A stretch of 64,000 nt of DNA from a virus: positions 3,578 through 67,577 of the IMG/VR virus record IMGVR_UViG_3300022932_000018, one strand, 5' to 3'. Position numbers and translations under genes: made by a program. Numbering within the stretch: the stretch's first letter is position 1; every line of letters starts with the position of its first letter. The notes under the pieces were generated by a model, which saw nothing but the letters and a program-made list of their open reading frames with translations, made no database searches and was not told where the DNA came from. This document shows positions 3,098 through 39,678 of the stretch, in pieces.

Positions 3098-3445
3098 TCA
3101 GTAAAAAATAACTCGTATGAGTAGTCCTTTCTTTCTTGCTTTTTTAATCATGTCGCCGGTGCCGGTACTGAACTCGTCCCAAAAGGCAATCAGGGCGTCG
3201 GCATTGTCAGCCATCTGCTGGTTCCTCACCGGTCCGCCGGCTTTGCCAAGACCTTTGATATACGGATAAACTACTACTGGATATCCGCGCTCATTCGCAT
3301 ATTCCTCACCCAGCTTGTCGGCGCCAACACAGCCACCTGATACGATGGTGATAGGCGTTCTAACTTTTGCCAGGATGTTGTCGCACTTTTCGCAGAGCAG
3401 GGGATAGTCGTTAAATGTCCTGCCGCCGGCTATGATTACTCGCAT
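3098..3445 (-). CDS. YspA/DUF2493-like SLOG-family protein
   Basis: MRVIIAGGR, IVSGGCVGAD, AGGPVRNQQM and AFWD..STGT motifs. Confidence 0.85.
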   Translation of the reverse strand: MRVIIAGGRTFNDYPLLCEKCDNILAKVRTPITIVSGGCVGADKLGEEYANERGYPVVVYPYIKGLGKAGGPVRNQQMADNADALIAFWDEFSTGTGDMIKKARKKGLLIRVIFY

Positions 3446-4438: not shown

Positions 4439-5068
4439 TTATTTTCTTCCGTAGTCTGCCGGGTTTTCACCGAAATTCTTGGTGTCCCAATTCAAAATAC
4501 GGTTTGGATAGCTGTTGTTCTTCAACCATTCCTCTGCCTCTTGCAACCTGGTCAGCACATCCACATTCTCCGGTATATGCTCCAGTCTTGTCTTTGCTCT
4601 TTTGTTTCTGACCCACGCCCTTGCCGTAGTTCTGTCACTGTAAATCGGGCAACCTATTCCGTAATCGTGGCAGTGTTTCAGTGCATCTACTATGCCTAAA
4701 AATTCCGCGATGTTGTTTGTGCCGCCCGGGCAAATATCGGTTTCCAGTATCATCCTTTCATCGGGCATCGTGATAGCCTGCCATTCCATTTCATGCCTCT
4801 TGCTCGAGTAAGCGCCATCAACTACGATGCAGGGGTACTCAATGTAGGCATTCATCTGCGACCTCACACTCCTAGTTGCCGGCGGCTTTTTCTGAATCCT
4901 GAATGGGGCTCCTGCGAATGCTAGTTCGGCCTGATGCTTGTTTGGATAGGATTTGAACTTGGCGCCTTTGAAACCATCAACCAGTGTTTTGCAGATTGCC
5001 CAGCTGTCAAAGACTCCTGTTCTTCGGCCTTGCCAGACGACGTAGAACTTTTTTTGTTTTTGCTTCAT
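4439..5068 (-). CDS. rnhA: Ribonuclease H1 with N-terminal hybrid-binding (viroplasmin-like) domain
   Basis: KFYVVWQGRRTGVFDSW N-domain; VDGA, TNNIAEFLG, YSD and GENPADYGRK catalytic motifs of Bacteroidota-type RNase HI. Confidence 0.9.
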   Translation of the reverse strand: MKQKQKKFYVVWQGRRTGVFDSWAICKTLVDGFKGAKFKSYPNKHQAELAFAGAPFRIQKKPPATRSVRSQMNAYIEYPCIVVDGAYSSKRHEMEWQAITMPDERMILETDICPGGTNNIAEFLGIVDALKHCHDYGIGCPIYSDRTTARAWVRNKRAKTRLEHIPENVDVLTRLQEAEEWLKNNSYPNRILNWDTKNFGENPADYGRK

Positions 5069-9022: not shown

Positions 9023-11575
9023 ATGGCAGATACTAACTACTCTTTCCCCAAAGAGAATGAAAACCCGAAGGTTAAAGCTAAAAAGCCATGGCTTCTTCAG
9101 TTCGTGAAAGCCGCTGTGTACACTTCCGGCCGGTTCAATGAGAAAGCAATTGGTGCTGTCAGTGCCAGTCGCTACAACATGATCACGCGCTATGTATTGG
9201 CTGAACAGGATACGACACAATACAAGAAGATGTTGTCCCGCAGCCAGGATGCTTCATCTGTGAAGCTGGCTGTTGACTGGACTCCGCGATCCTTTGCCTA
9301 CAAGCTGCGTCGGGTGGCTGTTGAAAGAGTGCTTGATTCTGGCTACGATATTATCATCAACCCTATTGACCCACTGGCACAGACGGAGCTTCGTCGTGAA
9401 CTGTCTACGGCAAAGGCAAAGGCACTTCTTCGTGAAGCTGCTGCCGGCGACCCTGAACTGATGCAGTCGCCTGCCTTGCGGCCGAAGGAAGGGGAGCCAG
9501 AAGACCTGGCTGGCGTTGAGATAAGTGAGCTGGGCGCCCGGCACCGGACGGCAATGGAAGCGGAGATGGTTGTCGAGTCTGTGTTTAATCAGAACGACTA
9601 TGCAGGCCAGCGCCGCAGCCATGTGAGTGACCTCTTTGACTTTGGTGTTACCGCCTCAAAGGATAGCACCGAGGGTTACTATGTTGGTGTGCGTCGCTGT
9701 GACCCACGCATGCTACTTCTCTCCCACTGCCGCTATCCAGATTTTAGCGACCTGAAGTATGTTGGCGAAGTGATGGAAGTTCCGGTAAGCCAGCTGGAGG
9801 CCATGGGCTGCGGTGAGATTTCTCAGGAAGACATCGACGGCCTCTACAAGAATATATTGTCAATGGCCTTTGACCCTAGTAATATATTGAAGTTCAACGT
9901 TGGCCAGTATGACAACGCTGCCGACTTCTCAGCACGGGGCAAAGTGTTCGTCGTTGACCTGGAGTTAAAGACCACCGATGTTATCCGTCGGGAAGACCGC
10001 AAGAGCGGTGCCGGCAATCCTATTTACGATAAAGTAGAGTACGAAGAAAAAGAAACTGAAAGAAAGAAAATAAAGGACATTCCGGTTCAGCGTATCTACC
10101 GCTGCAAGTGGGTTGTTGGCACTGATATTCTTTTCGATTACGGCCTTGCCAGAAACCAGAAGCGCGACCCAAAGAACAAAGCCTGTGCTCAGTTCTCGTT
10201 CCACATAGCGACGTCAGAGTTTTCTGATATGCGTGCCTACTCCCGGATGGAAAGTCTGATACCGTATATCAACGCGGCTCAGATAATGGTGTACAAGATT
10301 GAGGACACCTTGCAGCGTGGACACACTGGCGGTTATGCGTTCGACCTTGATGCTTTGGAAGATATTGCCATCGGCGCGGCCGGTGGTGATGCAATGTCGC
10401 CGAAAGACCTGATTGATATGTTCATGGACTCCAACGTGATTGTGAGCCGGAGCAAGGGCGGTCCTTATGGTGGCGGCAAGCAGAATGGCAATGGTCAGGT
10501 AGCGACGTGGATTGATGGCTTCACCGGTAAGGAACTGGTACAGTATTGGGACCAGCTCCGAAGCAACATCCAAATGATGAAGGACACGCTCGGACTCAAC
10601 GACGTGACCGACGGTTCTACTCCCAATTCAAAGAATCTGACTTCTACTACCGAGGCTGCCATCAACGGGACAAACAATGCGCTTGGCGACCTGTACTATG
10701 GCATTCAGGCATTGGAGAAAGCGCTGGCTGAATCCGTTGTTATACGCTCTCAGGATATTATACGGGATGGGAAAGGTGAAGCCTTTGCCGGCATCCTCGG
10801 TTCGGGAAGCGTGAAGTGGATAAAGGGAGTTCCGGATATCGACAAGTACACCTATGGTGTTGTTGTTGTGCCGCAACCTTCCCGTGATGAAGAACTATTG
10901 TTCCAACAGGATATGACGGAGGCTATGCAGTTGGGTATGATCACGATTGCCGACAAGCTGTTTATCCGCAATATCAAAAACCTCAAGCAGAAGCAGGATT
11001 ATCTCGCCTACAAGGTCCGCAAGAACCAGGAGAAAGCTCAGCAGAATGCACTTCAGCAGCAGCAGCAAACCGGCCAAATCCAGCAGCAGTCTGCCCAGAT
11101 GACTGCCCAGCTCAAGCTGCAGGAAATCCAGGCAGATGCAGAAGCGAAGAAGGATATCGCTACCCATCAGCATGCACTGAATATGGAAGAAGAAGTGACA
11201 AAGGGCAACTACCTGTTGGAAGCAAAGCGTATCGACGCTACCGGCCGCGTGGAGTCAGCAGACCTGCAGGCGCAAGGGCGCTCTACCGACAACCTCCGCA
11301 ACAACCTGACCAATCTTGCGAAAGAAGGGATGGAAGACAAAGCTGCTATTCTTCAAACATCAGACTTAGAATCAGAAGTTGAACCGCTTACCGATGCAAA
11401 TACGCCGCTCCAAATCACCATGCCGCAATTCCAGGGTTTCTCGTTCCTTCAACCGCCAGCACCGACACAGCCACAAGGGCAGCAGCCGATGTTACCGGAG
11501 CAAGGCATGGAAGGAATGATGGCTATGCAGGGTGGTGAAGAAAATATGTTGCCTGAAATGCAGATGCAACAGTAA
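9023..11575 (+). CDS. Portal protein
   Basis: 850 aa directly after TerL; LGLNDVTDGS motif; Q-rich coiled-coil C-terminus typical of podovirus/crAss-like portals. Confidence 0.85.
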   Translation: MADTNYSFPKENENPKVKAKKPWLLQFVKAAVYTSGRFNEKAIGAVSASRYNMITRYVLAEQDTTQYKKMLSRSQDASSVKLAVDWTPRSFAYKLRRVAVERVLDSGYDIIINPIDPLAQTELRRELSTAKAKALLREAAAGDPELMQSPALRPKEGEPEDLAGVEISELGARHRTAMEAEMVVESVFNQNDYAGQRRSHVSDLFDFGVTASKDSTEGYYVGVRRCDPRMLLLSHCRYPDFSDLKYVGEVMEVPVSQLEAMGCGEISQEDIDGLYKNILSMAFDPSNILKFNVGQYDNAADFSARGKVFVVDLELKTTDVIRREDRKSGAGNPIYDKVEYEEKETERKKIKDIPVQRIYRCKWVVGTDILFDYGLARNQKRDPKNKACAQFSFHIATSEFSDMRAYSRMESLIPYINAAQIMVYKIEDTLQRGHTGGYAFDLDALEDIAIGAAGGDAMSPKDLIDMFMDSNVIVSRSKGGPYGGGKQNGNGQVATWIDGFTGKELVQYWDQLRSNIQMMKDTLGLNDVTDGSTPNSKNLTSTTEAAINGTNNALGDLYYGIQALEKALAESVVIRSQDIIRDGKGEAFAGILGSGSVKWIKGVPDIDKYTYGVVVVPQPSRDEELLFQQDMTEAMQLGMITIADKLFIRNIKNLKQKQDYLAYKVRKNQEKAQQNALQQQQQTGQIQQQSAQMTAQLKLQEIQADAEAKKDIATHQHALNMEEEVTKGNYLLEAKRIDATGRVESADLQAQGRSTDNLRNNLTNLAKEGMEDKAAILQTSDLESEVEPLTDANTPLQITMPQFQGFSFLQPPAPTQPQGQQPMLPEQGMEGMMAMQGGEENMLPEMQMQQ

Positions 11576-12694: not shown

Positions 12695-14041
12695 ATGCCA
12701 CAAGGTACATTTACTGGTAACTACGCAGGCGTCCCATCGCTGCTCTACCAACCCGACATCCGCAAAGAGCTTATCAAGCGCTACCAGGATGATGACTTCG
12801 TCAACTTCCTCGACAAGACCGGTGCGTGGACAAAGAAGACTGACGACAAGTTCGTTACGGCCTTTGATAGTCCGCTGAACATCGTTGTTGACACCACTGG
12901 TGCGACAGTAACCAACTCCGGCACTGCGACCGTGACTGTGACAAACCTGCAGGGCGCCAACGCCAACCAGCTTATCGTTGGTAAGATGGTGATGTTCCCC
13001 AACGGCCTGCAAGGTCGTGTACAGACTGTTACAACTACCACGCTGGCAAACGATACGGTAACCATCCGTAGCACTGCAGCCGGCAATCCGAACCTGACCC
13101 TCGTTGCAGGTGGCATCCTCGTTCCTTACTCCAACCACCAGGAAGAAGGCTCCCTGCAGCCAGCTCCTGAAATCTGGCCACTGACTACCCTGACCCAGCT
13201 GATCGGTATCTTCCGTAAGACTGGCGGTATCACCGACGTAGCCCGTGCCCGTAACAACGGCTCTTTCCGTCTGGAAATTGGTGGCAAAGAAGCAATGGGT
13301 TCATGGCAGGCTGTTCGCACCCTGATGTCCCACCGTGCTGACATCGGCTATGGTTTGCTGATGGACGAAATCACTGACCCGAACTTCACCAATACCACTC
13401 CGACTGTTGTTGGTGCCCAGGGCTCCGGTGTTCAGTTTGGCCGTGGTCTTGTACCAACCATCCGTGACTTCGGCTGGAACTACAGTCTGACTACCCTCGG
13501 TACGCCTACCTTGGCTGACCTCGAAGGTATCACCAACCTTATCACCGCTGTTCGTGGCGCTGACGAATACATGTTGGTAGGCTCCCGTGCCGCTGTTGCA
13601 CGTATGAGCTCCTTCTTCAAGAACCTCGGTTCTGCCGGCCTGACATCTGTACGCATGATGGTCAATGGTCGTGAAGTTGACCTGACCGTGGAAGAGTTCA
13701 CCTTTGGTGGCCGCACTTTCCGCATGGCAGCCTGGAACACCTTCGACAACCAGCAAGTGCTGCTGACTTCGAATGCTGTTTCCAAGACCCTGTATGCAAT
13801 CCCTTACGGTACTGCCCACGTTTACTCCGGTGGCGGCAAGGATGTACCTTACATGGGTGTTGGCTACCTGCCAGTGATTCACCCTGGTGATGGTACTGAA
13901 AAGCAAGCCGAGGTTCACCTTGGTGCCCTGGCTGTAAATCCTACAAGCGGCACTGCCCGTGAGGATTGGGTTTACGAAACCATGTGTGCGCTTGACATTG
14001 CCAACCCTTATATGTTTGGCAGCATCCGCGTCCTCGCATAA
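12695..14041 (+). CDS. Major capsid protein
   Basis: 448 aa after the scaffold; strongly biased codon usage; followed by a terminator. Confidence 0.8.
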   Translation: MPQGTFTGNYAGVPSLLYQPDIRKELIKRYQDDDFVNFLDKTGAWTKKTDDKFVTAFDSPLNIVVDTTGATVTNSGTATVTVTNLQGANANQLIVGKMVMFPNGLQGRVQTVTTTTLANDTVTIRSTAAGNPNLTLVAGGILVPYSNHQEEGSLQPAPEIWPLTTLTQLIGIFRKTGGITDVARARNNGSFRLEIGGKEAMGSWQAVRTLMSHRADIGYGLLMDEITDPNFTNTTPTVVGAQGSGVQFGRGLVPTIRDFGWNYSLTTLGTPTLADLEGITNLITAVRGADEYMLVGSRAAVARMSSFFKNLGSAGLTSVRMMVNGREVDLTVEEFTFGGRTFRMAAWNTFDNQQVLLTSNAVSKTLYAIPYGTAHVYSGGGKDVPYMGVGYLPVIHPGDGTEKQAEVHLGALAVNPTSGTAREDWVYETMCALDIANPYMFGSIRVLA

Positions 14042-14050
14042 ACCAACTGG

Positions 14051-14084
14051 TAGCCGCCCTGTCTTGATGGGGCGGCTATTATTT
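14051..14084 (+). terminator. Intrinsic terminator after MCP
   Basis: TAGCCGCCC...GGGCGGCTA stem with a T-rich tail. Confidence 0.7.
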
Positions 14085-14119: not shown

Positions 14120-15019
14120 ATGTTACAAGCAGAAATTGATGGCAAGTGGGGTCCAATACCAAAGGAACTCTTGCCCGAAATCCCCGCAGAAGGAACGGTA
14201 TCTGTGTACGAGTTCGTGTACAGCTTCCCTGACTTTGCCACAAAGAAGAAGTCCTGGCAGAACCATGTCATGATTCATCCCATCAGCAAAATCCGTGATA
14301 AGAAAGGCCGGATAATCCGCATCGGTCTTGTTGGCGGCATCGACACTGTTGGCAATCTGAAGACTGAAGAAATCCGCCAGCTACACTTCTACCCGCAAAA
14401 CACCCGTGGCCGCATCAGCATTGAGGCCGGCAAGAGCGCTGAACAAGACGAGCTGCAGCAATACCTCGAGTTGACTTCTCAGAATGAAAGCAGCCCGTAC
14501 CGCGATACAGCCGTTGATCCGGTAATCCGCAAGGTAGATTTCGTTGGCCGTGCCAAGAAAGACCGTGCTGACCGTGAGAAGAAGCGCGATGCCATCGGCT
14601 ACGCTTACAGCCTCAAGAAAGACGAAGACATCACTCGTACAGCTTTGCTGTTGGGTATCGATTCTGACCGCGACCTTGAGCTGGTGATGAACGACATCGA
14701 AAAGCAGGCCGAAGAAAACCCGGACAACTTCATGCAGGTGGTGAATGACCCGAATGCAGACATCCAGGTGGCGTATGCTGAAGGCATGAAGAACGGCAAC
14801 CTCGTTTGGGACCCGATTCTGAGCCAGGTAAAGTGGGGCGCCAACAACGCCAGCATCATGCAGGTGGCCAATGCCGGTGAAGCGAAGTCTGAGTTTACGA
14901 ATTTTGTGAACAAGGATGGCAACGGCAAGACTGTCTACAATCAGCTGCTTACCCTGAATGGTAAGGCTCCTGCCGAGGACAAGCCTGCTGACGAAACGGC
15001 AAGCAAACCTAAAAAGTAA
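14120..15019 (+). CDS. Conserved head-module protein (post-MCP, crAss-like position)
   Basis: 299-aa ORF with highly expressed-type codon usage; synteny. Confidence 0.6.
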   Translation: MLQAEIDGKWGPIPKELLPEIPAEGTVSVYEFVYSFPDFATKKKSWQNHVMIHPISKIRDKKGRIIRIGLVGGIDTVGNLKTEEIRQLHFYPQNTRGRISIEAGKSAEQDELQQYLELTSQNESSPYRDTAVDPVIRKVDFVGRAKKDRADREKKRDAIGYAYSLKKDEDITRTALLLGIDSDRDLELVMNDIEKQAEENPDNFMQVVNDPNADIQVAYAEGMKNGNLVWDPILSQVKWGANNASIMQVANAGEAKSEFTNFVNKDGNGKTVYNQLLTLNGKAPAEDKPADETASKPKK

Positions 15020-15112
15020 TACCCACGCCCTATCTGCTGTGAAGTAGGTGGGGTGTTGGTATCAAGAAAGGTCGGGGTGATGCCCGGCCTTTCGCTATTT
15101 ATAAAAGCCCGT

Positions 15113-15322
15113 ATGAAAGCAAAGATATTCGCGATCGTTTCCCATGAGAAGGTTGAAATGGGGGAGAGACACTTTGAGGTTATGCCATGCGTTGGCGACA
15201 GCATAGAGCTGCAGAAGACCCGGTGGAAGGTGCTGAGCCGGTACTTCCCGGAAGGTGGTCCTGTTGAGCTCCTGTGCCTGCCTTTCCTTATTGGGCCAAT
15301 ATCTGATTTGCCGGAGTCGTAG
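15113..15322 (+). CDS. Small hypothetical protein
   Basis: ATG at 15113 follows the hairpin at 15066-15093. Confidence 0.45.
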   Translation: MKAKIFAIVSHEKVEMGERHFEVMPCVGDSIELQKTRWKVLSRYFPEGGPVELLCLPFLIGPISDLPES

Positions 15323-15337
15323 GATTTGCTATATTTG
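15307..15337 (+). promoter_or_regulatory. Consensus Bacteroidota sigma-A promoter for the tRNA-like RNA
   Basis: TTTG (15307-10), N19, TATATTTG (15330-37); predicted TSS ~15341-15344. Confidence 0.75.
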
Positions 15338-15340
15338 TGG

Positions 15341-15450
15341 TGAGAGGTGGTGTAGAGTACCCGACCTCTAATCGGGAGGTCGCCAGTTCAAATCTGGCCT
15401 TGGGTGGGAGTACCCCAGCCAAGTAGCTCAGTAGAGAATCCGCTCTCTCA
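15341..15450 (+). ncRNA. Circularly permuted tRNA-like RNA (Arg-UCU-like anticodon loop CCUCUAA)
   Basis: Order: D-3' half, anticodon arm CCCGA/TCGGG, variable AGGTC, T arm GCCAG-TTCAAAT-CTGGC, acceptor 3' CTTGGGT, linker, acceptor 5' AGCCAAG, TA, D-5' GCTCAG. The termini pair (TGAGAG/CTCTCA). Confidence 0.75.
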
Positions 15451-15476
15451 TTTGGACCTGATTCCGCATTCAGATT

Positions 15477-15503
15477 AAACCCGCTACTTGCGGGTTTTCT
15501 TTT
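15477..15503 (+). terminator. Intrinsic terminator closing the tRNA-like gene
   Basis: AAACCCGC-TACTT-GCGGGTTT followed by TCTTTT. Confidence 0.8.
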
Positions 15504-15522
15504 GCCCGTACTATAAGGTGCA

Positions 15523-16158
15523 ATGACAACCATCTTTGACGCATACCAACTCGTTCAATTCATACTGGATAAAGACCGGAATGGGTTTGCCTCGCCGGCC
15601 GATGTGTCGAAAGCGTTGGAAGTTGGACAGCAGACAGTTTACGACCGGTACTATGCTTTCAACTACGGCGAAAACCAGGCTTCTGTTGAAGCGCTACGCC
15701 CTTTCGTGAAGGTAGTTCCGCAGACAGCGAGTGCTACCGGTTTGCTCACCGTCCCTGCTGACTTTGTGCATGTGCTCAGTATCAACTCTACGGATGATGC
15801 GACTGTTTACGAACCGGTGCTGCAGGTCGAGCTGAGTGACACGATAAAGAGCGTTCTGTACCCGATTGCTGAATGGCCAAAATACATGGCTATTTCTTCC
15901 GGACTGCAGCTGTACCCAAAGACGTATGCTGATGTGAGTCTGCATTACCTGGCCCGGCCGGTTGCGCCTGTTGTTGGTGTGACTGTGACGGGGAATCAGG
16001 AAACGTATGACCCAAACACAAGTGTTCAGCTGGGTTTCGACAATAAGTATTGGGTGGAAATCATTGCCGCCAGTTTGCCTTACCTCGGCGTGAATCTTTC
16101 GGATGAACAAGTGGTGGGTCTGAGTGGCGTGTACAATCAAATGACTAAGAAACCGTAA
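15523..16158 (+). CDS. Putative tail ring / head-tail adaptor protein
   Basis: ~210-aa size and position; YLARP..P motif resembling crAss-like ring proteins. Confidence 0.6.
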   Translation: MTTIFDAYQLVQFILDKDRNGFASPADVSKALEVGQQTVYDRYYAFNYGENQASVEALRPFVKVVPQTASATGLLTVPADFVHVLSINSTDDATVYEPVLQVELSDTIKSVLYPIAEWPKYMAISSGLQLYPKTYADVSLHYLARPVAPVVGVTVTGNQETYDPNTSVQLGFDNKYWVEIIAASLPYLGVNLSDEQVVGLSGVYNQMTKKP

Positions 16159-30597: not shown

Positions 30598-33500
30598 TTA
30601 TTTTCTGTACCGGCCTTTCCCGGATGTTGTGACCTGGAATTTGCTGCCGCCATACTTGACCTGCATCTTCTTCTTGCGAATCTGTTGGAGCTTGCGGTTG
30701 ATAGCAGACACATCGGCCTCGCTCACTCCGAGAAGGGCCATGCCGTCTACGAGGGCGCCGATAGTTGCAGCCTGGCGTTCGTTTGGTGCAATATCAACTC
30801 TGGTGACCTTCTGATTGAACATATTACCCTTGTACCTGTCCGTCTGCCCGGTGATGGCCATGCGTGCTTCCGAGCCAGCGTTTGCTGCTGTCTGGAGCGG
30901 CCCGCCAAACATACCCCACTGACCGTAATCGTACTCACCATACTTGGCAGGGTCGTAAACAGAGAAGAAGCCGGGCTCTTTCTCGCTGGCACCATTCATG
31001 CCTTTTATCAGGTAGTTGGAAAGCTCATTCAGCTTTGTCTGAGTGAAGCCGCCCATACCGGCGAAGAAGTAATCCGAGATAGAATTGGCTGCAAACTTCT
31101 GCAGGTTCTTCGCGGTATCTGTTTCTTCTGCGAATTTATCATCGTCGTCATCCCACATGCCCAGCATAGATGCTAGGCCGCGTGCGGCTGCCGTAGTGGC
31201 GATGCCTATCACAAATATCTTGACGGCATTGAAGATGGCTGCTTCGGCCATGGTTGCCGCAAGAGAACGGGCTGCCTCGGCTTTTACATTCTTGTTGCCA
31301 AAAAGCAGCTTCTGAGCGTCGTTGGTCATGCGTACCCGCTGGTTGGTAGCAAAGCCTGAGTATGGCAGGAATATGCGCAGCATGGTGCGTCCCCAGCCTC
31401 CCTTGCGGTACATCTGGCCCATGGACGACGCATCGTTGGCATTCTGGCTACGGCTGGTCATTTGCTCAGCGTATGCGGCTGCCTCCGCGTTCGGGCTGTT
31501 GTGTTCTTCTGCCCAATTGATGCTATCGATATCTACGCCTTGCTCTTTCAGGCTCTGCATGTAGAAAGCAAGCCATGAAGTACGAGCCACCTTTACGTCG
31601 GAATAAACCAGGGCAGCCATGGTAGCATCAGCAACTCGTTGACCGATTTTATCTACCTGGCCGAGTGTCCGCTGGAAGCTGTTGCCAAATTCGGTGCGGT
31701 CTACCCGGCTGAAATCTGTGTCCCTGTTGTAGCCGGCTTTTGTTGATCCACGCTGACCGATGTTGAACTGGTCGAACAGTGGCAGGTTGGTACCTATCTG
31801 CCATGCTTTAGGGAACAGTGAGAAGTCACTGCCCAGGTTGGCCATGGTGTTGCCGGCGACAGAAACGTACTGCTTTGCCAGCTGAGAGAAGGAGCCGAGT
31901 GCGATACGGGCCGCTTTGGCAGCAGCTATATTGGCACCCTTCTCAACCATTCTTTCAACTTGGCTTACTTGTGGTGTTTTACCACGCTGTGCGTCTGCGG
32001 CTGACGTGAGGGCTGTCTGAACAAGCTCTTTATTCTGAGGCGTACCGAATACAGTTTCAGCATTCTTGTTGTCAAGGAACATGCGAATCTGGGCCTTTGC
32101 CTTATTGGTTTCTACATCGTAGTTGGTTTCGTAGAACCGGTCGGCAGCTGCAGAATCGAAGTCAAGGTCGAGTACTGCATTCTGACCTGGCAGAACGAAG
32201 TACCGGCGCCGGCGGTTCTTGGTGCCGGCGGGCGTTTCGTCAATCTTGCGGCGGGAGAAGGTCTGGTCAAACATCGTGGATGCAGCAGCCTGGTCTTTCA
32301 CTCCGCGCAGCTTACTGTAAGTAATAGGCGTGTAGTTATTGACTTCCTCGAAAGGAATATTGCTGTATATCTCACTGTTTTCTGCAACGGTTTCTCTGCG
32401 GTCGGCGAACTGCTGTTGCCAGAACTCAACTATTTTCTGGTTGTCGGCGCCGTTCTCCATGGCAATCAGTTTGGCTTCTACCTCTGCCGGGCTGTTGGAA
32501 CCCTCAAGCAAAGCATTATAGGCGTCGCTGACGTACTTTCCTTTCTGGTTGTCGTTCTTGTCGCCACTGTTATTGAGTCTGTCAGCAGTCTGGGCAACGA
32601 GCCCCTTGATGCGTTCGAACTCTGCGGCGTCCTTCTCGGCACCTTCATTGAAATTCATCTGAGAAAGAGCGTAGACACCACGCATGACCTTGTTCTCCGC
32701 ATCCATCACGGCATCAGGCATGTTCTTTACCAGCTCCTCGTAGGCCTTTATAGCGTTGCTCTGTGTTTTCTGAGCACGCGCATGACCGTTGAACAACTCA
32801 GACTGGCCGGATAGGCGTTGAAGTTCTGCAGCTACACGGGTGTTCTTGGTGATAAATTCATTCAGCAGGTTGATGCTGGCAATCTCACCGGCCACAGCTT
32901 TTGCAATGCCGCTTTTCAGTTCAGCAGGATTTACACCGGAGTCCTTCATCAGCTGTATAAGATGGTCCATGTTTCTTTGGACGATGGACAATGCCGACAT
33001 ATCACCGGCATCCGTGAAGGAGTCGTTGTATGTGATGTTGTTTATTACATCGTTCAGCTTCACCAAGGCAGGCATTTCAAGGTCGGTAGTATCAATCTGG
33101 CGGATGTTGTCGAGCACTTCGGTTTCCTCGGCAGATAGGTTGCTGATATCGTAGTTGTCCAGGTCAATCAACTGGTCGTCTACGTAGGCTTTCATCAGCC
33201 TCAGACGTTCTTCTGCATTGGTAACGGCAGCGGCGGCACGGTCGTCAGCTATCTGAGCAAGCTGGTCGTCAATGGCTGCCTGTATATCTGCTGGAGATGC
33301 GGTTGCAGGGTCAATGGTGCCGGCTGCCACAAGGTCTGCGAATACCCGGTCACGGCGGCGTTGCTCCTGCTCTTTCTTGGCAACTTCCATTTCAGCTGCT
33401 GCAGATTGAACGTAGGCTTCGATGTCGGTGATAGTAGCCTGGTAGTCTGCGTTGGCGACAGTGCCGTTCTTTGCATTGGCTTTGGCGTTACTGATTGTGC

Positions 33501-36500
33501 TCAGCACGCGGTCAGCCATTGCCAGGTACTCGTCAAGGTTCGCAAGTACATCTGGTTTGATACGAAGGAATGCCTTTACGGCGTCAACATTGTTCGCAGC
33601 TTTCTGAACAGCTTTGGAGCGGACAGCAGCGCGTATTTTCTTGGCTACGGATTGGGCGTCTTTCAGCTTGGCATCGTACTCTGCATCCGCAAGTATCTTA
33701 TCGGTGTAGGTAATGAAAGCGTCGAGTTTGGCAGCGTTTTCTCCTACGGCAAGTCCACGCTTGATGATAGCAGCTACCTGCTTTGGCGTAACGGTGCCGG
33801 CTGCTTGTGCTGTTGCAAGGTGTTCCTTTATACGGTCGATGGCTGTTTCGAATGGAGCCTGCGCAATTGCTTTGCCCTGGCTGATTCCTTCTTTGCGGCC
33901 GCGACGTTCACCGGTAACCTCACCTTCCTGCTGACCCTGGGTACGGCCGGCTCTGAATCCTTCCAATGCTGCACGGGCTTCCATGCGGATTTGGTTCTTC
34001 AGGTCTGCCATGCCAGTGGTATCGGTACGGGTGGCGTTATTGATGGTCGTGCCAATGGAAGTCTTAGCCCGTGGCTTGACGTACTCGTTTACCAGCTCCT
34101 CGAACGCAGCTTGGTTGAAGATGCTGGCGTCGTGATTTGCCTTGATAGCACGCACGGCATCATTGATGGCTGCACGCTGGGTCTTGCCGGCGGTCTGTGC
34201 TTCGATTACTGCCCGGAATCCTTCTGCGATTGCAGCTGGTGTAAGGCCTATCCGGTCCAGTGCTTCCTGCCTGCGGGTGAACTCAACGTTTGGCTTTGCC
34301 TTGTCGAGTATCTGCTGTGCTACTTCTGGCCCTACCGTTGCGGCAAGTCCTCTCAGTATTGCAGTTTCGCTTGTGCCACGGGCGAGTTTCTTCTCAGCCA
34401 TCTTTACGAGCTCAGGGTCTATCTGCGGCGCGAGGGAATACATGGTCAGGCCATTCTTCTTGGAACGGGCAGACATGGATTCGGCAAAGCGAAGTGGTGA
34501 GAATACTTCGTCAGGATATACCTGGCTGATATAGTCGTTCAAAACTCCGTACATCTCTGCTACGGCGCCAGTCAGCTCATAGGTGCCTCGTCCTTTGTGA
34601 ACCAGTCCGCCAACGATGGCCTTGTCCGCTGCTGATATTCCTGCCGGGTTCTCCAGCATATCAATCATGATGCCTTCAGCGAAAGGTTCGGATGCGTTCT
34701 GGAATGCTTGCGTTTGCTCTACAAGGTCCAGCATGTTCTGGTACACATCGGGCGCTTTTGCTGCCACGAGTTCTACCATCTGCGAACCTCCAACCGAGTT
34801 GGTAATACGGGAAGCGAAGTCGCTGCTGTTGACGGATGAATAAACACCGGTGAGTTCTCCGGAATCCTCGTCGCTGGAACCCCGGCCGCGTTGCCCGGCT
34901 GTTTCTGCAGCAATGGCAATGCTTTCGTCAATGGCGTCGGCGCTCCGGTTCTGGGAGCGCTCTGCCCTGGCTGCTCTTGTCAGGGTGTTGGGAGCGTCGA
35001 TGATTTCCTTGATGCGTCTTGTCAGGCTGTTGGCAGAGCTGAGTTCTGCGAGGACTGCACGGCTGTATGATTGCAGGCTGATGTTGGCAAACTGCTGTGC
35101 GGTTACCTGGTTGAAGCCGGCTGATTTCTTGAGTGTATCCCAAAGCGATTTCAACCATGCGCTGAATCCCTTTCTGTTTTTCTGCGGGATATTCTGAGCT
35201 TCCTGTTCGATGGTCTGAGCGAGTATTTCCTCTGCGATGGCAGCACGGGCTTCGGACTTATCTTCTGCCTGTCCATATTCTATGGCATAACGTTGCCACA
35301 TGGCTACATCGGATGCGCTCATGCCAGCCGGAGCGGCCGGTTGTTGACCGTCCAGCAATGCAGAAGCATACTGATAGGCGTCTGTTTCCTTTGCAAGCGC
35401 TTCGCCACGGGCATATATGTCTGGAGCATTTACCCGTGCCCAGGCAGCCCATACATGGCCAAGCTCATGGATAGGTGTTGATGGGCTTGCTTCCTCCACG
35501 TTGATGAACATGGTATTGGAGCCAGCATCATACCACCCTTTCGGCGCCGTTTCTTCTGCGAAGGTTTCAGGCAGGAATTGCCGGGCAGATTCGTTGTCTA
35601 CGACGACAAGCGTTGGCTCACCCTTGAACTTGTTTTTGATGCGCTCATGCAGTGCCATTACGCCTTGGCGTGTCCAGCCGGCACGATTCATTGTCGCGTT
35701 GTCGGTGAAGATGTTCTGCGTGCCTGGGCGAACTTCAAACAGGTCTATTTCAGGGGCGGCTTCTTCTACTGGAACTGCTGTTTCTGCTGGGCTATTAGTT
35801 TGCGGAGTGTTTTGAACTTCGCGGCTAATAGCTTCTCTAACTTCTCCTGATAGGTCAATTTCACCTCTCCGGACTGCTTCGTAGTAGGCGTTCTCGAGGT
35901 CTTGCTGGTTGCCATATTCTTGGTTTAAGAGTTCTTTTTCTTTGGCTTGTAATTGCGCTTCTTCCTGTGCCATCACGATGTCGGCTATGCCATCGTTGAG
36001 TGGGAACCCTGTAAGTTGTTCAAACTTGTCTTCTGCGAGGCGCTGATTGCTAGAAGGGCGTGATCTTACTGCCTGGTCAACTCCGCCGGGGAACCGGTAC
36101 ATGAAATCGACAAGGTCTTGTGGAGTGATATTGAGGCCGTTGTTGCCGTCCATATCAGCACCATTCAAGTCAATAGCAATCTGGTCGAGGCTCGCCGCTT
36201 TCTGTCCCTTCTTTCCAATGTAATTCGCAGCGATGCCGCGATTCATATTGTTGCGGTCGCCGAACTGATTGAAAGAATCCTGCGTTGTGGTGAATCCACC
36301 CTGGTCTACGATTGCCTGCTCGATGGTGTCGAGCATTGCTGGCTCTTGCGGCATATTCCGCCAGATGGTCGCTATCTCAACAGGGTTGGTAGAGTTCTCG
36401 ATAATGGAAGCCTCATACTCCTGGCGGTTCACTCCGGCATCTGGTTGTGGTGCCAGAGCGCCTTGCAGGAAATTGTATTTGGCAGCGGCACCTTCGCGCT

Positions 36501-39500
36501 CTTGCTTGTTCGCAGGACGCTCGTTACCGGTATCAACGTTCCGAACAGTGAGGCCGGCCGGCGTATTCATGACGATGCTGTTACCAACGATGGCGTCCAC
36601 GAATGGCTGAATTGGTGGTGCGACAGGTTCCTCGGCTTGCTCGATAGTCTGCGCTTCAAGCTGGCCAAGTAAATCACCAAACTCAGGCGTGATTTCAAAG
36701 TTTGGTTCTGCTTCTTCCGCAACTACTGGTTCCGGCGTTGATTCAGATGGTGCTGCATTCAGTTGTTCCTCGGTTACTACGATGGGTTGGAACTCTCCTT
36801 CCGTGTCTGGGGTTTCTGCTACGGTGGGCTCAAGTACTGTAACTGTTTCCCCTGTGGTTACCGGATCCGCAATGACTTCCTGTGCTACTGGTGGAACTAC
36901 AATATTGTAAGCGCCCTCGGCCAGAGTAGATGGCACATTCTCGCCGCGCATCCTTTGCAGGGCATCCATCACTTCTTCTTTACTCCGGCCTTCATCTACC
37001 AGGCTACGGGTTGCAGCTACCATGGCACGCATGGCTGAGGTGGTAATTCCGGCATCCATTTCAGCTTCGCTTACCGGGCGATCGTTCTCTACCTCTGCAT
37101 CGTAAATATCACGGGCGGTAATGATGTCGATAGCGAAGTCAGATGTAGTGCCAAGCAGGTTGGGCTCTGCAGCATCAATAGTGGCATCGTGTTCTTCCTG
37201 TACGGCTACGGAAAGTTCGGGCGCCGTGAGAGGACGTGCAATGTCCATGGTTGTTTGTCCTGTTGCCAGTGCTGCAGCTATGCGCTTCTTGCCGTCGATT
37301 ATTTGACCGTCCTTTCCTATTACGACGGGATTCGTGTTGGCGGTAATTGACTGTGATGCCGGGGTTGAAGAAGCCTGAATGTAACCTCGAACCTCTGGGT
37401 CGTTTGCATACGGCGTGATATCTATGCTCTCCGTTGTGTAAGGTCCATTGTTCAAGATGGCAGAAGTCTGTGCGCCTCTTAGGCTGGCTGCTGGTGTGTA
37501 TCGTTGAGATATTGCCGCCATTTCTACGCCAGAAACTGTGCGTCCACGAAGGTCTGTGCCTTCTTCAATTTGCTTTATCGCAAGTGTAGACGCGGCAGCT
37601 TTTGCCTGCAAGTCTTGTACTTGTGCCTCTACTGCCTGTCCGGCCTCGCGAGTGAAAATGCCGTTGGCATCACGGGCCATCAGCACCTGAGTTTTCTGCC
37701 CGGTATTTACGTCAGTTATTTCTTCGTACCGGATTTCAGGCGCAATAGCTGCAAGTGCTGCGGCTGTTTCCTGGAGTCGGGCTTGTTCAATTCCGTACTG
37801 CACAGCTTTTGGCCCTACCAGAGCCTGTCCGCCCTTATCCTTTGGCTGGATTGCTCTTGCTACAAAAGGTTCTACCCGGCCAATAAAATTCTGAATCTGC
37901 GAGGCCTGTTCAGGCGTCATTCTTCCGGACTGCAGCTGCTCAGTGATGGATTGCCGGAAGTTTTCAGGGCTTGCCATCGCCTGGTAGATTGCTGCAGCCT
38001 GGCTGGTTGGTGCCTGCGTGCCGTGTTGCCCGATGCTAGACATCATGCCGCCGGCTACGGTCCCAACAAGTCCTTCATGGGCGGCTTGTTCTACCGCGCC
38101 TTTCCAGTCGAATGGTTCGGTGCGGCCTGCGTCATTCCAATCTTGGTAGCTGTCTGCTCCAGAACCAAAAACTTCTTCTACGCCTTCGCCAAGCGATTGC
38201 CCGAGCCGAGGACTTACATTTTGCTTGATGAACTGGCCCAATTTCTGAACACGGCCTGTCGCAATTACTTCGTCAGCACTGTTGACAATTCGATTTGAAA
38301 GATTACTCCCGGCACCTCTCCGGGCAAGCGGGTTTGCAAGGCCTTCAATCAGGATATTGACCGACGCTCTTTGTGCTGCCTTTGCAGATGCTTGCTGTGG
38401 GGTATATCCGGAATCAAGTGCCTGTTTGAAATAGCTGGCATAGATAGTCGGGTATGCGTAGGCAGTAGTATTTATTACGTTATCGATGTAGCGTGTTGCT
38501 ACACGGGCTGGCATAGACTGGAGCGTAGCGGCAAGGCCATCAAATGCTTTTTGCGATAGCGTGCCTTCATTAGCAAGGGCACCGCGCAAAGCTGCTGATG
38601 TAGCACCTCGTTGAGCGGCATTTGCAGCTGGCGCCCAATTACCTATGCTTGCACCTTTAGAAAGAGCACCGAGCCCTACTGATGGTCCAAGAAACTCGCC
38701 TCCTGTGCGGGTGGCGGTTCCAAGGATCGTGTCGAGATACGCAAAGGGATTGTTAGTAAGCGTTGCTGTTGTGAGGTCGGCTTCATTGGTTGGTCGGTTG
38801 CCGCCAAGATATTGTTCGCTTCCAGCCAGCCATTGGGCATGCGTATTGGCCACATTCCTTGCGGCACTTTCGTTGCCCGTCGCATCATACAGAGGCTCCA
38901 ATAGTCCGCGTCCGAGGAAAGCCCCGAAGTTTGACGATGCACGCAAGCCTTCTTTTGCAGCTCCCCAGATGTAGCCAACAGGTTTCAGTACGCCGCCGGC
39001 ACCGTCGTGCAAGAAATCTGTGATGTCTTGATTGTAGTTGTTGGCTTGCTGAAATTCATTCTTCTTGCCCTGCACAATCGCATCGGCAGCTTGTTTAAAT
39101 TTCTTTTCGTCGCCGCCGGCCAATTCAATTACTTCACGCTTAAAAGTGGGGTTGAATTGTTTTGTTTCCTGGTTGGTGTAAACAAGGTCTTTGCTGACTG
39201 GCGTTTTCAGGTCTGTGAATCGTGTAGCGTTGCTCTGAATGCCACGCAAAGCAGCATCTGAAGGGTCGCCAACGATGGAACGGAACCGGTCGTCGTCATA
39301 ATCAGGGAGTGCCTTTGCGGCTTTCTGTTGTGCCTTTTGCTGGCCGTAACGGGCGGTGGCTGCCAATGTATTTTGATATGCCTTACGGTCGGCATCGCTT
39401 ATCCCTGCTGCAAATTCAGTTGCCGGCTTTGCGGCTGCCGCAACCTGGCTGTTGAATGCTTGTTGGTATTGCTTCAGCTGCTGTTGCCGTTGCGCTTCTG

Positions 39501-39678
39501 CGGCGCGTGCCTGCTGGATAGCTGGAGTGTTTGAAAGTGCTTGCTGTTCGGCAGCTACATTGCCAATAATCCCTTGCTCTATCTGTGTGCGTTGGTCGCC
39601 AAAAGAAGTAGGGAAAGGGATTGCTTGCGGAGCCGGTTGTGACGGCTGTTTCTTGGTGTCTTTATCTTTTGCTCCCAT
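30598..39678 (-). CDS. Giant (3026 aa) polyvalent virion/ejection protein with ParB-like and zincin (HExxH) domains
   Basis: NPVVIGKDGQIIDGKKRIAA (ParB/Srx-like); KGWYD...INVE...TPIHELGHVW...EEILA (MPTase-like); G/A-rich membrane-like segments. Confidence 0.75.
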   Translation of the reverse strand: MGAKDKDTKKQPSQPAPQAIPFPTSFGDQRTQIEQGIIGNVAAEQQALSNTPAIQQARAAEAQRQQQLKQYQQAFNSQVAAAAKPATEFAAGISDADRKAYQNTLAATARYGQQKAQQKAAKALPDYDDDRFRSIVGDPSDAALRGIQSNATRFTDLKTPVSKDLVYTNQETKQFNPTFKREVIELAGGDEKKFKQAADAIVQGKKNEFQQANNYNQDITDFLHDGAGGVLKPVGYIWGAAKEGLRASSNFGAFLGRGLLEPLYDATGNESAARNVANTHAQWLAGSEQYLGGNRPTNEADLTTATLTNNPFAYLDTILGTATRTGGEFLGPSVGLGALSKGASIGNWAPAANAAQRGATSAALRGALANEGTLSQKAFDGLAATLQSMPARVATRYIDNVINTTAYAYPTIYASYFKQALDSGYTPQQASAKAAQRASVNILIEGLANPLARRGAGSNLSNRIVNSADEVIATGRVQKLGQFIKQNVSPRLGQSLGEGVEEVFGSGADSYQDWNDAGRTEPFDWKGAVEQAAHEGLVGTVAGGMMSSIGQHGTQAPTSQAAAIYQAMASPENFRQSITEQLQSGRMTPEQASQIQNFIGRVEPFVARAIQPKDKGGQALVGPKAVQYGIEQARLQETAAALAAIAPEIRYEEITDVNTGQKTQVLMARDANGIFTREAGQAVEAQVQDLQAKAAASTLAIKQIEEGTDLRGRTVSGVEMAAISQRYTPAASLRGAQTSAILNNGPYTTESIDITPYANDPEVRGYIQASSTPASQSITANTNPVVIGKDGQIIDGKKRIAAALATGQTTMDIARPLTAPELSVAVQEEHDATIDAAEPNLLGTTSDFAIDIITARDIYDAEVENDRPVSEAEMDAGITTSAMRAMVAATRSLVDEGRSKEEVMDALQRMRGENVPSTLAEGAYNIVVPPVAQEVIADPVTTGETVTVLEPTVAETPDTEGEFQPIVVTEEQLNAAPSESTPEPVVAEEAEPNFEITPEFGDLLGQLEAQTIEQAEEPVAPPIQPFVDAIVGNSIVMNTPAGLTVRNVDTGNERPANKQEREGAAAKYNFLQGALAPQPDAGVNRQEYEASIIENSTNPVEIATIWRNMPQEPAMLDTIEQAIVDQGGFTTTQDSFNQFGDRNNMNRGIAANYIGKKGQKAASLDQIAIDLNGADMDGNNGLNITPQDLVDFMYRFPGGVDQAVRSRPSSNQRLAEDKFEQLTGFPLNDGIADIVMAQEEAQLQAKEKELLNQEYGNQQDLENAYYEAVRRGEIDLSGEVREAISREVQNTPQTNSPAETAVPVEEAAPEIDLFEVRPGTQNIFTDNATMNRAGWTRQGVMALHERIKNKFKGEPTLVVVDNESARQFLPETFAEETAPKGWYDAGSNTMFINVEEASPSTPIHELGHVWAAWARVNAPDIYARGEALAKETDAYQYASALLDGQQPAAPAGMSASDVAMWQRYAIEYGQAEDKSEARAAIAEEILAQTIEQEAQNIPQKNRKGFSAWLKSLWDTLKKSAGFNQVTAQQFANISLQSYSRAVLAELSSANSLTRRIKEIIDAPNTLTRAARAERSQNRSADAIDESIAIAAETAGQRGRGSSDEDSGELTGVYSSVNSSDFASRITNSVGGSQMVELVAAKAPDVYQNMLDLVEQTQAFQNASEPFAEGIMIDMLENPAGISAADKAIVGGLVHKGRGTYELTGAVAEMYGVLNDYISQVYPDEVFSPLRFAESMSARSKKNGLTMYSLAPQIDPELVKMAEKKLARGTSETAILRGLAATVGPEVAQQILDKAKPNVEFTRRQEALDRIGLTPAAIAEGFRAVIEAQTAGKTQRAAINDAVRAIKANHDASIFNQAAFEELVNEYVKPRAKTSIGTTINNATRTDTTGMADLKNQIRMEARAALEGFRAGRTQGQQEGEVTGERRGRKEGISQGKAIAQAPFETAIDRIKEHLATAQAAGTVTPKQVAAIIKRGLAVGENAAKLDAFITYTDKILADAEYDAKLKDAQSVAKKIRAAVRSKAVQKAANNVDAVKAFLRIKPDVLANLDEYLAMADRVLSTISNAKANAKNGTVANADYQATITDIEAYVQSAAAEMEVAKKEQEQRRRDRVFADLVAAGTIDPATASPADIQAAIDDQLAQIADDRAAAAVTNAEERLRLMKAYVDDQLIDLDNYDISNLSAEETEVLDNIRQIDTTDLEMPALVKLNDVINNITYNDSFTDAGDMSALSIVQRNMDHLIQLMKDSGVNPAELKSGIAKAVAGEIASINLLNEFITKNTRVAAELQRLSGQSELFNGHARAQKTQSNAIKAYEELVKNMPDAVMDAENKVMRGVYALSQMNFNEGAEKDAAEFERIKGLVAQTADRLNNSGDKNDNQKGKYVSDAYNALLEGSNSPAEVEAKLIAMENGADNQKIVEFWQQQFADRRETVAENSEIYSNIPFEEVNNYTPITYSKLRGVKDQAAASTMFDQTFSRRKIDETPAGTKNRRRRYFVLPGQNAVLDLDFDSAAADRFYETNYDVETNKAKAQIRMFLDNKNAETVFGTPQNKELVQTALTSAADAQRGKTPQVSQVERMVEKGANIAAAKAARIALGSFSQLAKQYVSVAGNTMANLGSDFSLFPKAWQIGTNLPLFDQFNIGQRGSTKAGYNRDTDFSRVDRTEFGNSFQRTLGQVDKIGQRVADATMAALVYSDVKVARTSWLAFYMQSLKEQGVDIDSINWAEEHNSPNAEAAAYAEQMTSRSQNANDASSMGQMYRKGGWGRTMLRIFLPYSGFATNQRVRMTNDAQKLLFGNKNVKAEAARSLAATMAEAAIFNAVKIFVIGIATTAAARGLASMLGMWDDDDDKFAEETDTAKNLQKFAANSISDYFFAGMGGFTQTKLNELSNYLIKGMNGASEKEPGFFSVYDPAKYGEYDYGQWGMFGGPLQTAANAGSEARMAITGQTDRYKGNMFNQKVTRVDIAPNERQAATIGALVDGMALLGVSEADVSAINRKLQQIRKKKMQVKYGGSKFQVTTSGKGRYRK

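Follow-up and report, generated by a model that had tools for sequence, protein, structure and literature searches.

The 64-kb stretch analysed here, referred to below as the window (positions 3,578 to 67,577 of the 67.6-kb IMG/VR virus record IMGVR_UViG_3300022932_000018, the completeness of which is estimated at 65%), belongs to a phage from leaf litter and carries, on its plus strand between the head genes and an adaptor gene, a stand-alone tRNA-derived element in which the order of the tRNA parts is rotated and the acceptor is closed by a loop. We put a probability of roughly 45% on the explanation that we favour, namely that the element is a small non-coding RNA gene of a probable Bacteroidota phage, and that its RNA would be a circularly permuted tRNA mimic derived from tRNA independently of the known ones. 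The layout is of the YrlA type, known for Y-RNA-like tRNA mimics, and is not a new kind of tRNA gene.

Parts of the element and their tRNA identity

Read from 5' to 3', the RNA would consist of a 5' clamp strand, a D-arm remnant, an anticodon-arm-like hairpin, a variable loop, a T arm, a closed acceptor, the equivalents of U8 and A9, the 5' half of a D arm and a 3' clamp strand (Table 1). Nearly all universal tRNA positions are retained in it (U8, A14, A21, G53, T54-C56, A58 and C61). An earlier reading of this DNA from its letters alone (the sequence-only reading) had listed the individual features of the element, and on inspection of the sequence every one of them was found where it had been placed; among these, the closed acceptor lacking CCA, the pairing of the RNA ends and the duplication of GTAGAG (15352-57 and 15431-36) are all confirmed. 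Because the acceptor is closed and there is no CCA, the RNA as transcribed cannot, judging from its sequence, be aminoacylated.

In its native order the element is not recognised as a tRNA: ARAGORN called neither a tRNA nor a transfer-messenger RNA (tmRNA) in the window or in the whole 67.6-kb record, and Rfam at its gathering thresholds found no match in the window. With the threshold relaxed, the Rfam tRNA model (RF00005) produced a partial match to positions 15345-15401 (model positions 5-66, 24.1 bits, E 0.0065 in 311 nt), which falls below the gathering score of 29 bits. The sequence-only reading had further held that joining 15417-15432 to 15349-15406 restores a cloverleaf, and here the outcome is mixed. 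ARAGORN did call a tRNA-Arg(tct) in all six junction variants of the re-joined sequence; however, the control proved lenient, with the true 3' part combined with a shuffled 5' piece being called a tRNA in 31 of 1000 cases, and G18G19 are paired in the clamp, position 33 is a C and the 2-71 pair is G.G. When the position of the 5' piece was varied instead, 17 of the 710 offsets tried gave a call, seven of which were the true site and ten unrelated. Given this leniency, the better evidence that the 5' piece is tRNA-derived lies in its motif and its pairing: the canonical GTAGCTCAGT motif is present in it, spaced from the T loop as in a tRNA, and it pairs at 6/7 positions with the upstream acceptor strand and at 4/4 with the D strand. 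Readings of the locus as a tmRNA, a retron, a riboswitch or a CRISPR repeat were discarded, being supported neither by ARAGORN nor by Rfam; no reverse transcriptase domain is present among the 70 open reading frames (ORFs) of the window.

Table 1. Coordinates of the tRNA-like element, its flanking signals and the surrounding genes (window positions).
Feature	Position	Strand	Remarks
Portal gene	9023-11575		Upstream of the element
SU10-type major capsid gene	12695-14041		Upstream of the element
ORF of 89 amino acids	15053-15322		Directly upstream of the element; stop codon 15320-22
Bacteroidota-type promoter-like motif	15307-15337	+	TTTG (15307-10), 19-nt spacer, TATATTTG (15330-37); overlaps the stop codon of the 89-amino-acid ORF
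5' leader, 5' strand of the clamp	15339-15350	+	Common with the sister phage through 15347
Swappable body of the RNA gene	15348-15489	+	142 nt
3' half of D arm and position-26 A	15349-15359	+	GG, TGTA, GAGT (15349-15358); A (15359)
Anticodon-arm-like hairpin	15360-15376	+	Position of YrlA 'V'; 5-bp stem; 7-nt loop CCUCUAA, an Arg-UCU loop with C33
Variable-loop equivalent	15377-15381	+	AGGTC, last base the conserved pyrimidine; Rfam tRNA and YrlA alignments
T arm	15382-15398	+	Canonical T loop TTCAAAT; Rfam tRNA and YrlA alignments
Loop-closed acceptor hairpin	15399-15423	+	7-position acceptor with one G.G mismatch, plus three G-C pairs; 5-nt loop (15409-13); no CCA
Acceptor 3' strand	15399-15405		Followed by G (15406), then the 10-nt linker
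Acceptor 5' strand, TA, GCTC, AGT	15417-15432
U8-A9 equivalents, D-stem 5' strand and minimal local D hairpin	15424-15439	+	D-stem strand GCTC; hairpin 15427-29/15434-36, loop AGTA
3' strand of the clamp	15440-15452	+	Resembles a diverged copy of the 5' part of the anticodon stem-loop
3' tail	15458-15503	+	Small 4-bp hairpin, then intrinsic-terminator-like hairpin (15477-15497) and T-run; z -3.7
SU10-type adaptor or structural protein gene	15523-16158		Downstream of the element
Tyrosine integrase gene	60070-60948		31 bits; 45 kb from the element

Predicted fold

For the RNA spanning 15338-15456, the predicted minimum free energy (MFE) is -51.1 kcal/mol (z -4.0; 0/200 shuffles as good). The ends of the RNA would be held together by a clamp of 12 base pairs (bp) with one bulged U, formed by 15339-50 and 15440-52, the pairs of which have predicted probabilities of 0.92-0.99, with 0.42 for the outermost one. 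At -16.3 kcal/mol, as compared to -11.4 +/- 2.0 kcal/mol in shuffled leaders (38/2000 as good), the modelled clamp duplex surpasses chance modestly. In the predicted ensemble the T arm (0.94-0.99) and the closed acceptor hairpin (0.97-1.0) form in nearly all cases.

The sequence-only reading had pictured the RNA as a tRNA split in the D-loop, with a long-range D stem, the anticodon arm and G18G19 in place, and most of this picture does not hold in the predicted ensemble. The long-range D stem (15355-58/15426-29) has a probability of 0.19 as compared to 0.70 for the local 3-bp D hairpin (15427-29/15434-36), and the anticodon stem has a probability of 0.011 as compared to 0.985 for a competing 7-bp non-tRNA hairpin (15363-15381). 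The candidates for G18G19 are indeed present (15349-50), but they are clamp-paired in ~95% of the ensemble. Segment 15349-15359 either is left over from a first tRNA, 'tRNA 1', or pairs with 15426-29 as one side of the long-range D stem. Evaluated energies amount to -45.2 kcal/mol for the D-loop-split fold, -46.3 kcal/mol for the local D hairpin combined with the anticodon arm and -50.6 kcal/mol for a fold of the MFE type; the modelled energies do not favour the D-loop-split fold, and, since nearest-neighbour energies leave out tertiary contacts, neither do they exclude it. The paired ends contain no bulge-helix-bulge (BHB) motif: there is a single bulged U, and the junction to the D stem has unpaired stretches of 4 and 10 nt.

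Putative transcription unit and sister phage

The element had been credited with a promoter and a terminator of its own, and sites resembling both do flank it: a promoter-like motif at 15307-15337 and an intrinsic-terminator-like site at 15477-15497, followed by a T-run. By these sequence signals the locus is a candidate RNA gene. The pattern TTTG-N19-TAnnTTTG has four matches in the window where 1.25 are expected, and 3/100 shuffles reach four; a Shine-Dalgarno-like motif within 20 nt of the start is found in 0/70 ORFs of the window. Taken together, the two observations fit, without proving it, a Bacteroidota host, which we consider probable.

A sister phage, represented by an IMG/VR contig (L002), is 97.7% identical to the window over 2820 nt on the left side of the element and 93.5% identical over 3115 nt on the right (blastn). 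The two have in common the promoter-like motif (bar two substitutions in the sister phage), the initial 8-9 nt of the RNA and the 3' half of the terminator. From 15347 to 15490 of the window, the sequence of the element gives way in the sister phage to an unrelated body of 147 nt: in global alignment the two bodies are no more similar than 60/500 shuffles, an inversion relating them was considered and no such relationship exists, and the body of the sister phage is not tRNA-like and is weakly structured (z -1.45). GGTGTAG follows shortly after the shared leader in both phages, and both of the unrelated bodies contain a complement of the leader (15445-50 in the window; CCTCTCA, 51 nt downstream, in the sister phage). 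The body is likewise replaced, by 147 other letters between the same two boundaries, in a Logan contig of a second leaf-litter sample, and an independent Logan contig from the probable source sample is identical to the window over 14900-15900. Because a near-identical phage has a different body in the same slot, the tRNA-like body is, as read from these alignments, accessory cargo in a conserved slot made up of promoter, leader and terminator.

Comparison with YrlA RNAs

In the excerpts of Chen et al. 2014 (PMC4201824), YrlA is described as having its T and D stem-loops on either side of a closed acceptor-like stem (AS), the four stem-loops V, T, AS and D being contained within an end-to-end stem, with V upstream of T and with a GNCGAAN0-1G motif, which contacts Ro60, near the 5' end. 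The element follows the same order of end-to-end stem, optional V, T arm, loop-closed acceptor-like stem, UA and D arm; neither has a free CCA, both are found in phages, and a tRNA origin has been proposed for YrlA as well. The sequence-only reading had taken the element to differ in kind from YrlA since it keeps the anticodon arm and has its break in the D-loop. That contrast was overstated: the 'kept anticodon arm' sits in the V position, as the excerpted description has it (PMC4201824), and the local D hairpin is the one preferred in the ensemble. Consistently with the shared layout, the Rfam YrlA model (RF02553) aligns the T arm, closed hairpin, UA and D arm of the element in order (cmscan, model positions 23-85), the match covering 15374-15441 and scoring 15.6 bits (E 0.39-1.4), where the gathering score is 69 bits.

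The layout is a common one in phages. To gauge its frequency, we searched IMG/VR with a pattern in which GTAGCTCAGT comes 22-36 nt after a T loop, and at least 115 loci were returned; among the matches listed, 82 had both flanking tRNAs called and 23 had neither. Twenty of these 23 uncalled loci (all except L139, L143 and L145) were given to Rfam, and 16 of the 20, again among the matches listed, had YrlA hits of 28.1-45.6 bits, all under the 69-bit threshold. In three of the five records of YrlA-like loci that were checked, a TROVE protein adjoins the RNA. A hairpin with a 5-bp stem and a 7-nt loop that ends 5 nt before the T stem is found in three of the 16 YrlA-like RNAs among the matches listed (L067, L097 and L127), and therefore the element is not the first permuted tRNA mimic to have an anticodon-arm-like hairpin; the loop of L067, CUUCUAA, is that of an Arg-UCU-type anticodon loop.

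We aligned 14 of the phage YrlA-like RNAs (all except L095, which has two modules, and L137, which is located within a tRNA array). All 14 have the D arm GCTC..GG..GAGC and the G52-C62 pair without variation, and nine of the 16 predicted pairs show compensatory changes. The element departs from these RNAs in having A52-U62 where 14/14 have G-C, in a D loop that is short by 5 nt, the GG among them, and in a D stem that ends in a mismatch (A). A covariance model built from 14 IMG/VR YrlA-like loci (R2) was searched against 100 sources; it gave the element 45.3 bits, as compared to 75-109 bits for 11 training members (the training members L157, L158 and L160 not being among the 100 sources), 60-65 bits for held-out YrlA-like loci and ~30-62 bits for tandem-tRNA junctions. 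With a score in the range of ordinary tandem-tRNA junctions, and not above it, the element scores like generic tRNA pieces, and in sequence it resembles generic tRNA more than it does the conserved YrlA core.

Nor does the record show a link to Ro60. The GNCGAAN0-1G motif is absent from 15339-15452 (by inspection), and, as had been noted earlier, there is no Ro/TROVE gene in the 70 ORFs of the window or in the six frames of the 67.6-kb record, which, being ~65% complete, leaves room for a distant one. One trait used to recognise YrlA RNAs is a Ro60 (TROVE) gene within ~4 kb on the same strand, and in the record the element has no such neighbour. Unlike YrlA, it has a V hairpin that is a near-perfect tRNA-Arg(UCU) anticodon arm, and an upstream D-arm half able to complete a full cloverleaf. 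A 12-mer of the leader and D remnant recurs unchanged in L100, in the 5' strand of this Ro60-linked YrlA-like RNA (shuffle frequency ~2e-4 per locus); this identity may reflect shared tRNA D-arm ancestry. A 5' motif common to the YrlA-like RNAs was sought and rejected, L100 being the only one of the 16 with a strong match.

Five of the YrlA-like loci (L067, L071, L103, L157 and L158) have ACAGCAA (ACAAGCAA in L103) at ~30-40 nt upstream of the T arm and a variable hairpin after it, and may form a phage subfamily, with Rfam YrlA scores of 28-44 bits. L095/L145 has two tandem YrlA-like modules in one locus (Rfam matches 153-221 and 231-298), and in L137 a YrlA-like module (39 bits) lies between called tRNAs, one of which is tRNA-Sec-like by Rfam (50.2 bits).

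Searches for homologues

A family with the same permuted order, for which the sequence-only reading had proposed a covariance-model search, was not found: model R1 detected no second copy in 40 sources, which include 38 related phage loci and the window (377 kb). A second copy was likewise absent from IMG/VR when searched with a structured pattern and from the INPHARED phages (blastn); exact 22-mers and 18-mers had as their sole match in IMG/VR an unrelated tRNA-Leu of a jumbo phage; and a 23-mer across the anticodon, variable loop and T stem is in none of the GTDB species genomes. In the JGI metagenomes the structured pattern matched 15 loci, 14 of which have ARAGORN tRNA calls and none of which, by inspection, has a closed acceptor. 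These 15 matches to the D-arm motif are ordinary tRNA arrays, from which it follows that D loops of AGTA or AGTAGAGAA occur in real tRNAs. GCTC-AGTA-GAGC is the D arm in three metagenome loci and GCTC-AGTAGAGAA-GAGC that of several tRNA-Val, Asp and Phe calls; L043, L048, L052 and nine other metagenome loci hold tandem-array tRNAs with unusually small or GG-less D loops.

As for the phage itself, relatives identified in IMG/VR through the major capsid protein are just 24-31% identical and have no tRNA or similar RNA, no prophage relatives were found in GTDB genomes, and closer relatives are present only in Logan assemblies, contigs of which encode capsid and adaptor proteins that are 38-62% identical. 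The papers found on permuted tRNAs in connection with phages, none of which, judged from the listing, deals with bacterial phages, and those found on YrlA and tRNA-like RNAs of phages do not describe this arrangement.

Possible origin from a tandem tRNA unit

The origin model for YrlA of Sim and Wolin, as quoted in the excerpts of Wang et al. 2018 (10.1101/312249), derives these RNAs, possibly several times over, from dimeric tRNA transcripts: the first tRNA supplies the T arm, the second one the D arm and the spacer the AS, and left-over D and anticodon pieces may pair into a handle. The closed-loop acceptor of YrlA-type RNAs is described in the same excerpts (10.1101/312249), and those of Chen et al. 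(PMC4201824) state that dimeric tRNAs mimic YrlA in searches. The element would be the kind of intermediate that the dimeric-tRNA model predicts. Having arisen independently from a tandem (dimeric) tRNA unit, it would have taken its T arm and acceptor 3' strand from copy 1 and its acceptor 5' strand and D arm from copy 2, the spacer would have turned into the loop of the hairpin, and what remained of the D and anticodon parts would have been recruited into the clamp. There is an internal repeat, 15431-51 being identical to 15352-72 at 16/21 positions (18/500 shuffles as good), on the strength of which the locus reads as ~1.3 turns of a tRNA-plus-spacer unit; this would run from the D loop of tRNA 1 to its position 73, through a spacer of 10 nt, and from position 1 of tRNA 2 into a diverged anticodon region that is now paired with the leader.

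With tandem tRNA junctions the element shares the succession of T arm and acceptor 3' strand, short spacer, acceptor 5' strand and D arm, and its score on R2 is like those of 82 ordinary tandem pairs. Unlike in tandem tRNAs, neither tRNA is complete or called by ARAGORN, the acceptor strands are complementary and form, together with the spacer, one 10-bp hairpin, and the ends are clamped by a non-tRNA leader. Permuted tRNA genes, for which the excerpts of Wang et al. 2018 (10.1101/312249) cite red and green algae and Thermofilum, provide a second point of reference. They too encode the 3' half first, have an acceptor closed by a linker and paired ends, and give a cloverleaf on rejoining; unlike them, the element has no BHB motif and has C33 in place of U33. 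In the algal and archaeal permuted precursors the BHB is cut by splicing endonuclease, with a circular intermediate; to our knowledge, this enzyme is lacking in bacteria. In the permuted ssrA genes of alpha-proteobacteria and cyanobacteria the loop closing the acceptor is excised, resulting in a two-piece tmRNA held together by helices. The element differs from these in having no ARAGORN tmRNA call, no G3:U70 and no tag reading frame.

Competing explanations

Several observations weigh against an RNA gene encoding a functional tRNA mimic. The element is a singleton, seen in a single phage, and the sister phage gets by with another body in its place. The enrichment of the promoter motif is weak, and so is the evidence from the ARAGORN call on the re-joined sequence. 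The anticodon arm gives way to the non-tRNA hairpin in the predicted ensemble. A tRNA-like elbow is doubtful, as the local D loop has no GG, which 14/14 YrlA-like RNAs do have, and the upstream GG is in the clamp; further deviations in the tRNA-like parts are the C at position 33 and the G.G pair 2-71. A good part of this list would also suit a non-functional relic, that is, a decayed tandem-tRNA or YrlA-like fragment that sits in a variable intergenic slot and, transcribed or not, has no role of its own. The unrelated body of the sister phage, the short and mismatch-ended D arm, the C33, the G.G pair, the diverged second copy (16/21) and an R2 score equal to that of ordinary tandem-tRNA junctions all speak for such a relic, which we regard as less probable than a mimic but as the strongest of its rivals. 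Against it, incomplete though the tRNA copies are, the retained halves make one full cloverleaf with all five helices intact and nearly all universal tRNA positions kept, a 12-bp clamp joins a leader of non-tRNA origin to the 3' end (38/2000 shuffles as good), and the element is located exactly between the promoter-like motif and the terminator.

The location could alternatively mean that the element acts in cis, as part of an mRNA: a tRNA-shaped fold together with the terminator would end the head-gene transcript and either be cut by tRNA-processing enzymes or block 3' exonucleases, and no promoter of its own would be needed. The position on the same strand between head genes and adaptor gene, 20 nt before the next start codon and with a terminator directly following, speaks for this, and the promoter motif is, as said, weakly supported. 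We consider it improbable all the same, as the promoter-like motif and leader are kept in both phages and as the sister phage has a poorly structured body (z -1.45) in the same slot, which argues that no tRNA-like signal is required there. Less probable again, and indeed the least so of the explanations considered, is a phage attachment site (attP) duplicating the 3' portion of a host tRNA-Arg gene. The attP of many phages does contain the 3' part of a tRNA gene, and this phage encodes a tyrosine integrase (31 bits); however, the integrase gene is at a distance of 45 kb, neither the clamp nor the 5' tRNA piece downstream would be accounted for, and both the sister phage, which has the same flanks and no tRNA part, and the absence of the 23-mer from all GTDB species genomes argue against it.

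Lastly, the RNA might be a two-piece molecule resembling tRNA-Arg(UCU), a possibility that we judge very unlikely. It would then be a complete tRNA-Arg(UCU) body opened in the D-loop, with the long-range D stem formed and the 12-bp clamp emerging from the D-loop; the acceptor would be opened by RNase P, with 3' trimming and the addition of CCA, after which the molecule would be charged, or would replace or shield the host tRNA-Arg, and the slot would be a site for exchanging small-RNA cargo. Only the D-loop-split fold gives a complete D arm with G18G19 and A21, and its energy is within 1 kcal/mol of that of the local-D fold with the anticodon arm (-45.2 vs -46.3 kcal/mol). The phage uses AGA for 12.4% of its Arg codons. 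The acceptor has seven positions, described as the major determinant for RNase P, and there is a precedent in the M. smegmatis YrlA, the 7-bp closed AS of which, according to the excerpts of PMC4201824, is cut by RNase P and acquires CCA in vivo. Against all this stand the ensemble predictions for the long-range D stem (probability 0.19) and the anticodon arm (0.011), the pairing of G18G19 in the clamp, the replacement of the near-universal U33 by C33, the G.G pair at 2-71, the absence of a BHB motif and the absence of any detectable tRNA-processing or ligase domain, RNA ligase and tRNA enzymes included, from the 70 ORFs of the window. In addition, positions -1 to -3 are paired with 73-75, which should hinder RNase P. 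If it were true nonetheless, no bacterial virus before this one would have had a two-piece (split) tRNA-like molecule, which would be either a chargeable AGA decoder or a stand-in or decoy with C33 that survives or absorbs anticodon nucleases directed at tRNA-Arg.

Genomic surroundings

Apart from the structural and integrase genes in Table 1, the domain search of the 70 ORFs identified a DnaB and an HNH endonuclease. Three candidate ORFs around the element were set aside. An antisense ORF of 81 amino acids (15288-15533, minus strand) that spans the whole RNA gene is probably no gene, being split in the sister phage into stretches of 42, 43 and 30 amino acids; a plus-strand frame that opens at the leader and runs for 29 codons, as read by eye, is cut short after 4 codons in the sister phage; and an upstream ORF of 69 amino acids, considered as a partner of the RNA, yielded a poor AF2 model (predicted local distance difference test score, pLDDT, of 44) and uninformative look-alikes.

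Elsewhere in the window, a strong terminator-like hairpin of 15 pairs (14048-14081, plus strand) is located immediately 3' of the major capsid gene. Small minus-strand ORFs at 3098-3445, 1364-2191 and 4439-5068 have Pfam matches to a SLOG-family domain (YAcAr), a PAPS-reductase-like domain and an RNase H1 N-terminal domain, respectively. A minus-strand ORF of 3026 amino acids (30598-39678) has no Pfam match, and the ORF of 543 amino acids that comes after it is likewise unmatched.

Implications for phage tRNA mimics

Should the RNA be a permuted tRNA mimic, as we favour, it may, as a stable molecule, decoy or tether a factor that binds tRNA, be it a tRNA enzyme of the host, a nuclease or the Ro60 of a host. 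The element would represent a YrlA-type intermediate in which the anticodon arm and half of the D arm of the first tRNA are still kept and a vestige of the anticodon region of the second tRNA is already part of the clamp, and which has neither the conserved YrlA core nor a Ro60 site. It would thus be one more case of a tRNA-shaped RNA in a phage without a Ro60 gene, in this instance a swappable one, the Arg-UCU loop of which has a changed position 33. Provided that the RNA is produced and is stable, the phage carrying the element and the sister phage lacking it would constitute a simple natural pair for studying what role a partner-less tRNA mimic plays in infection.

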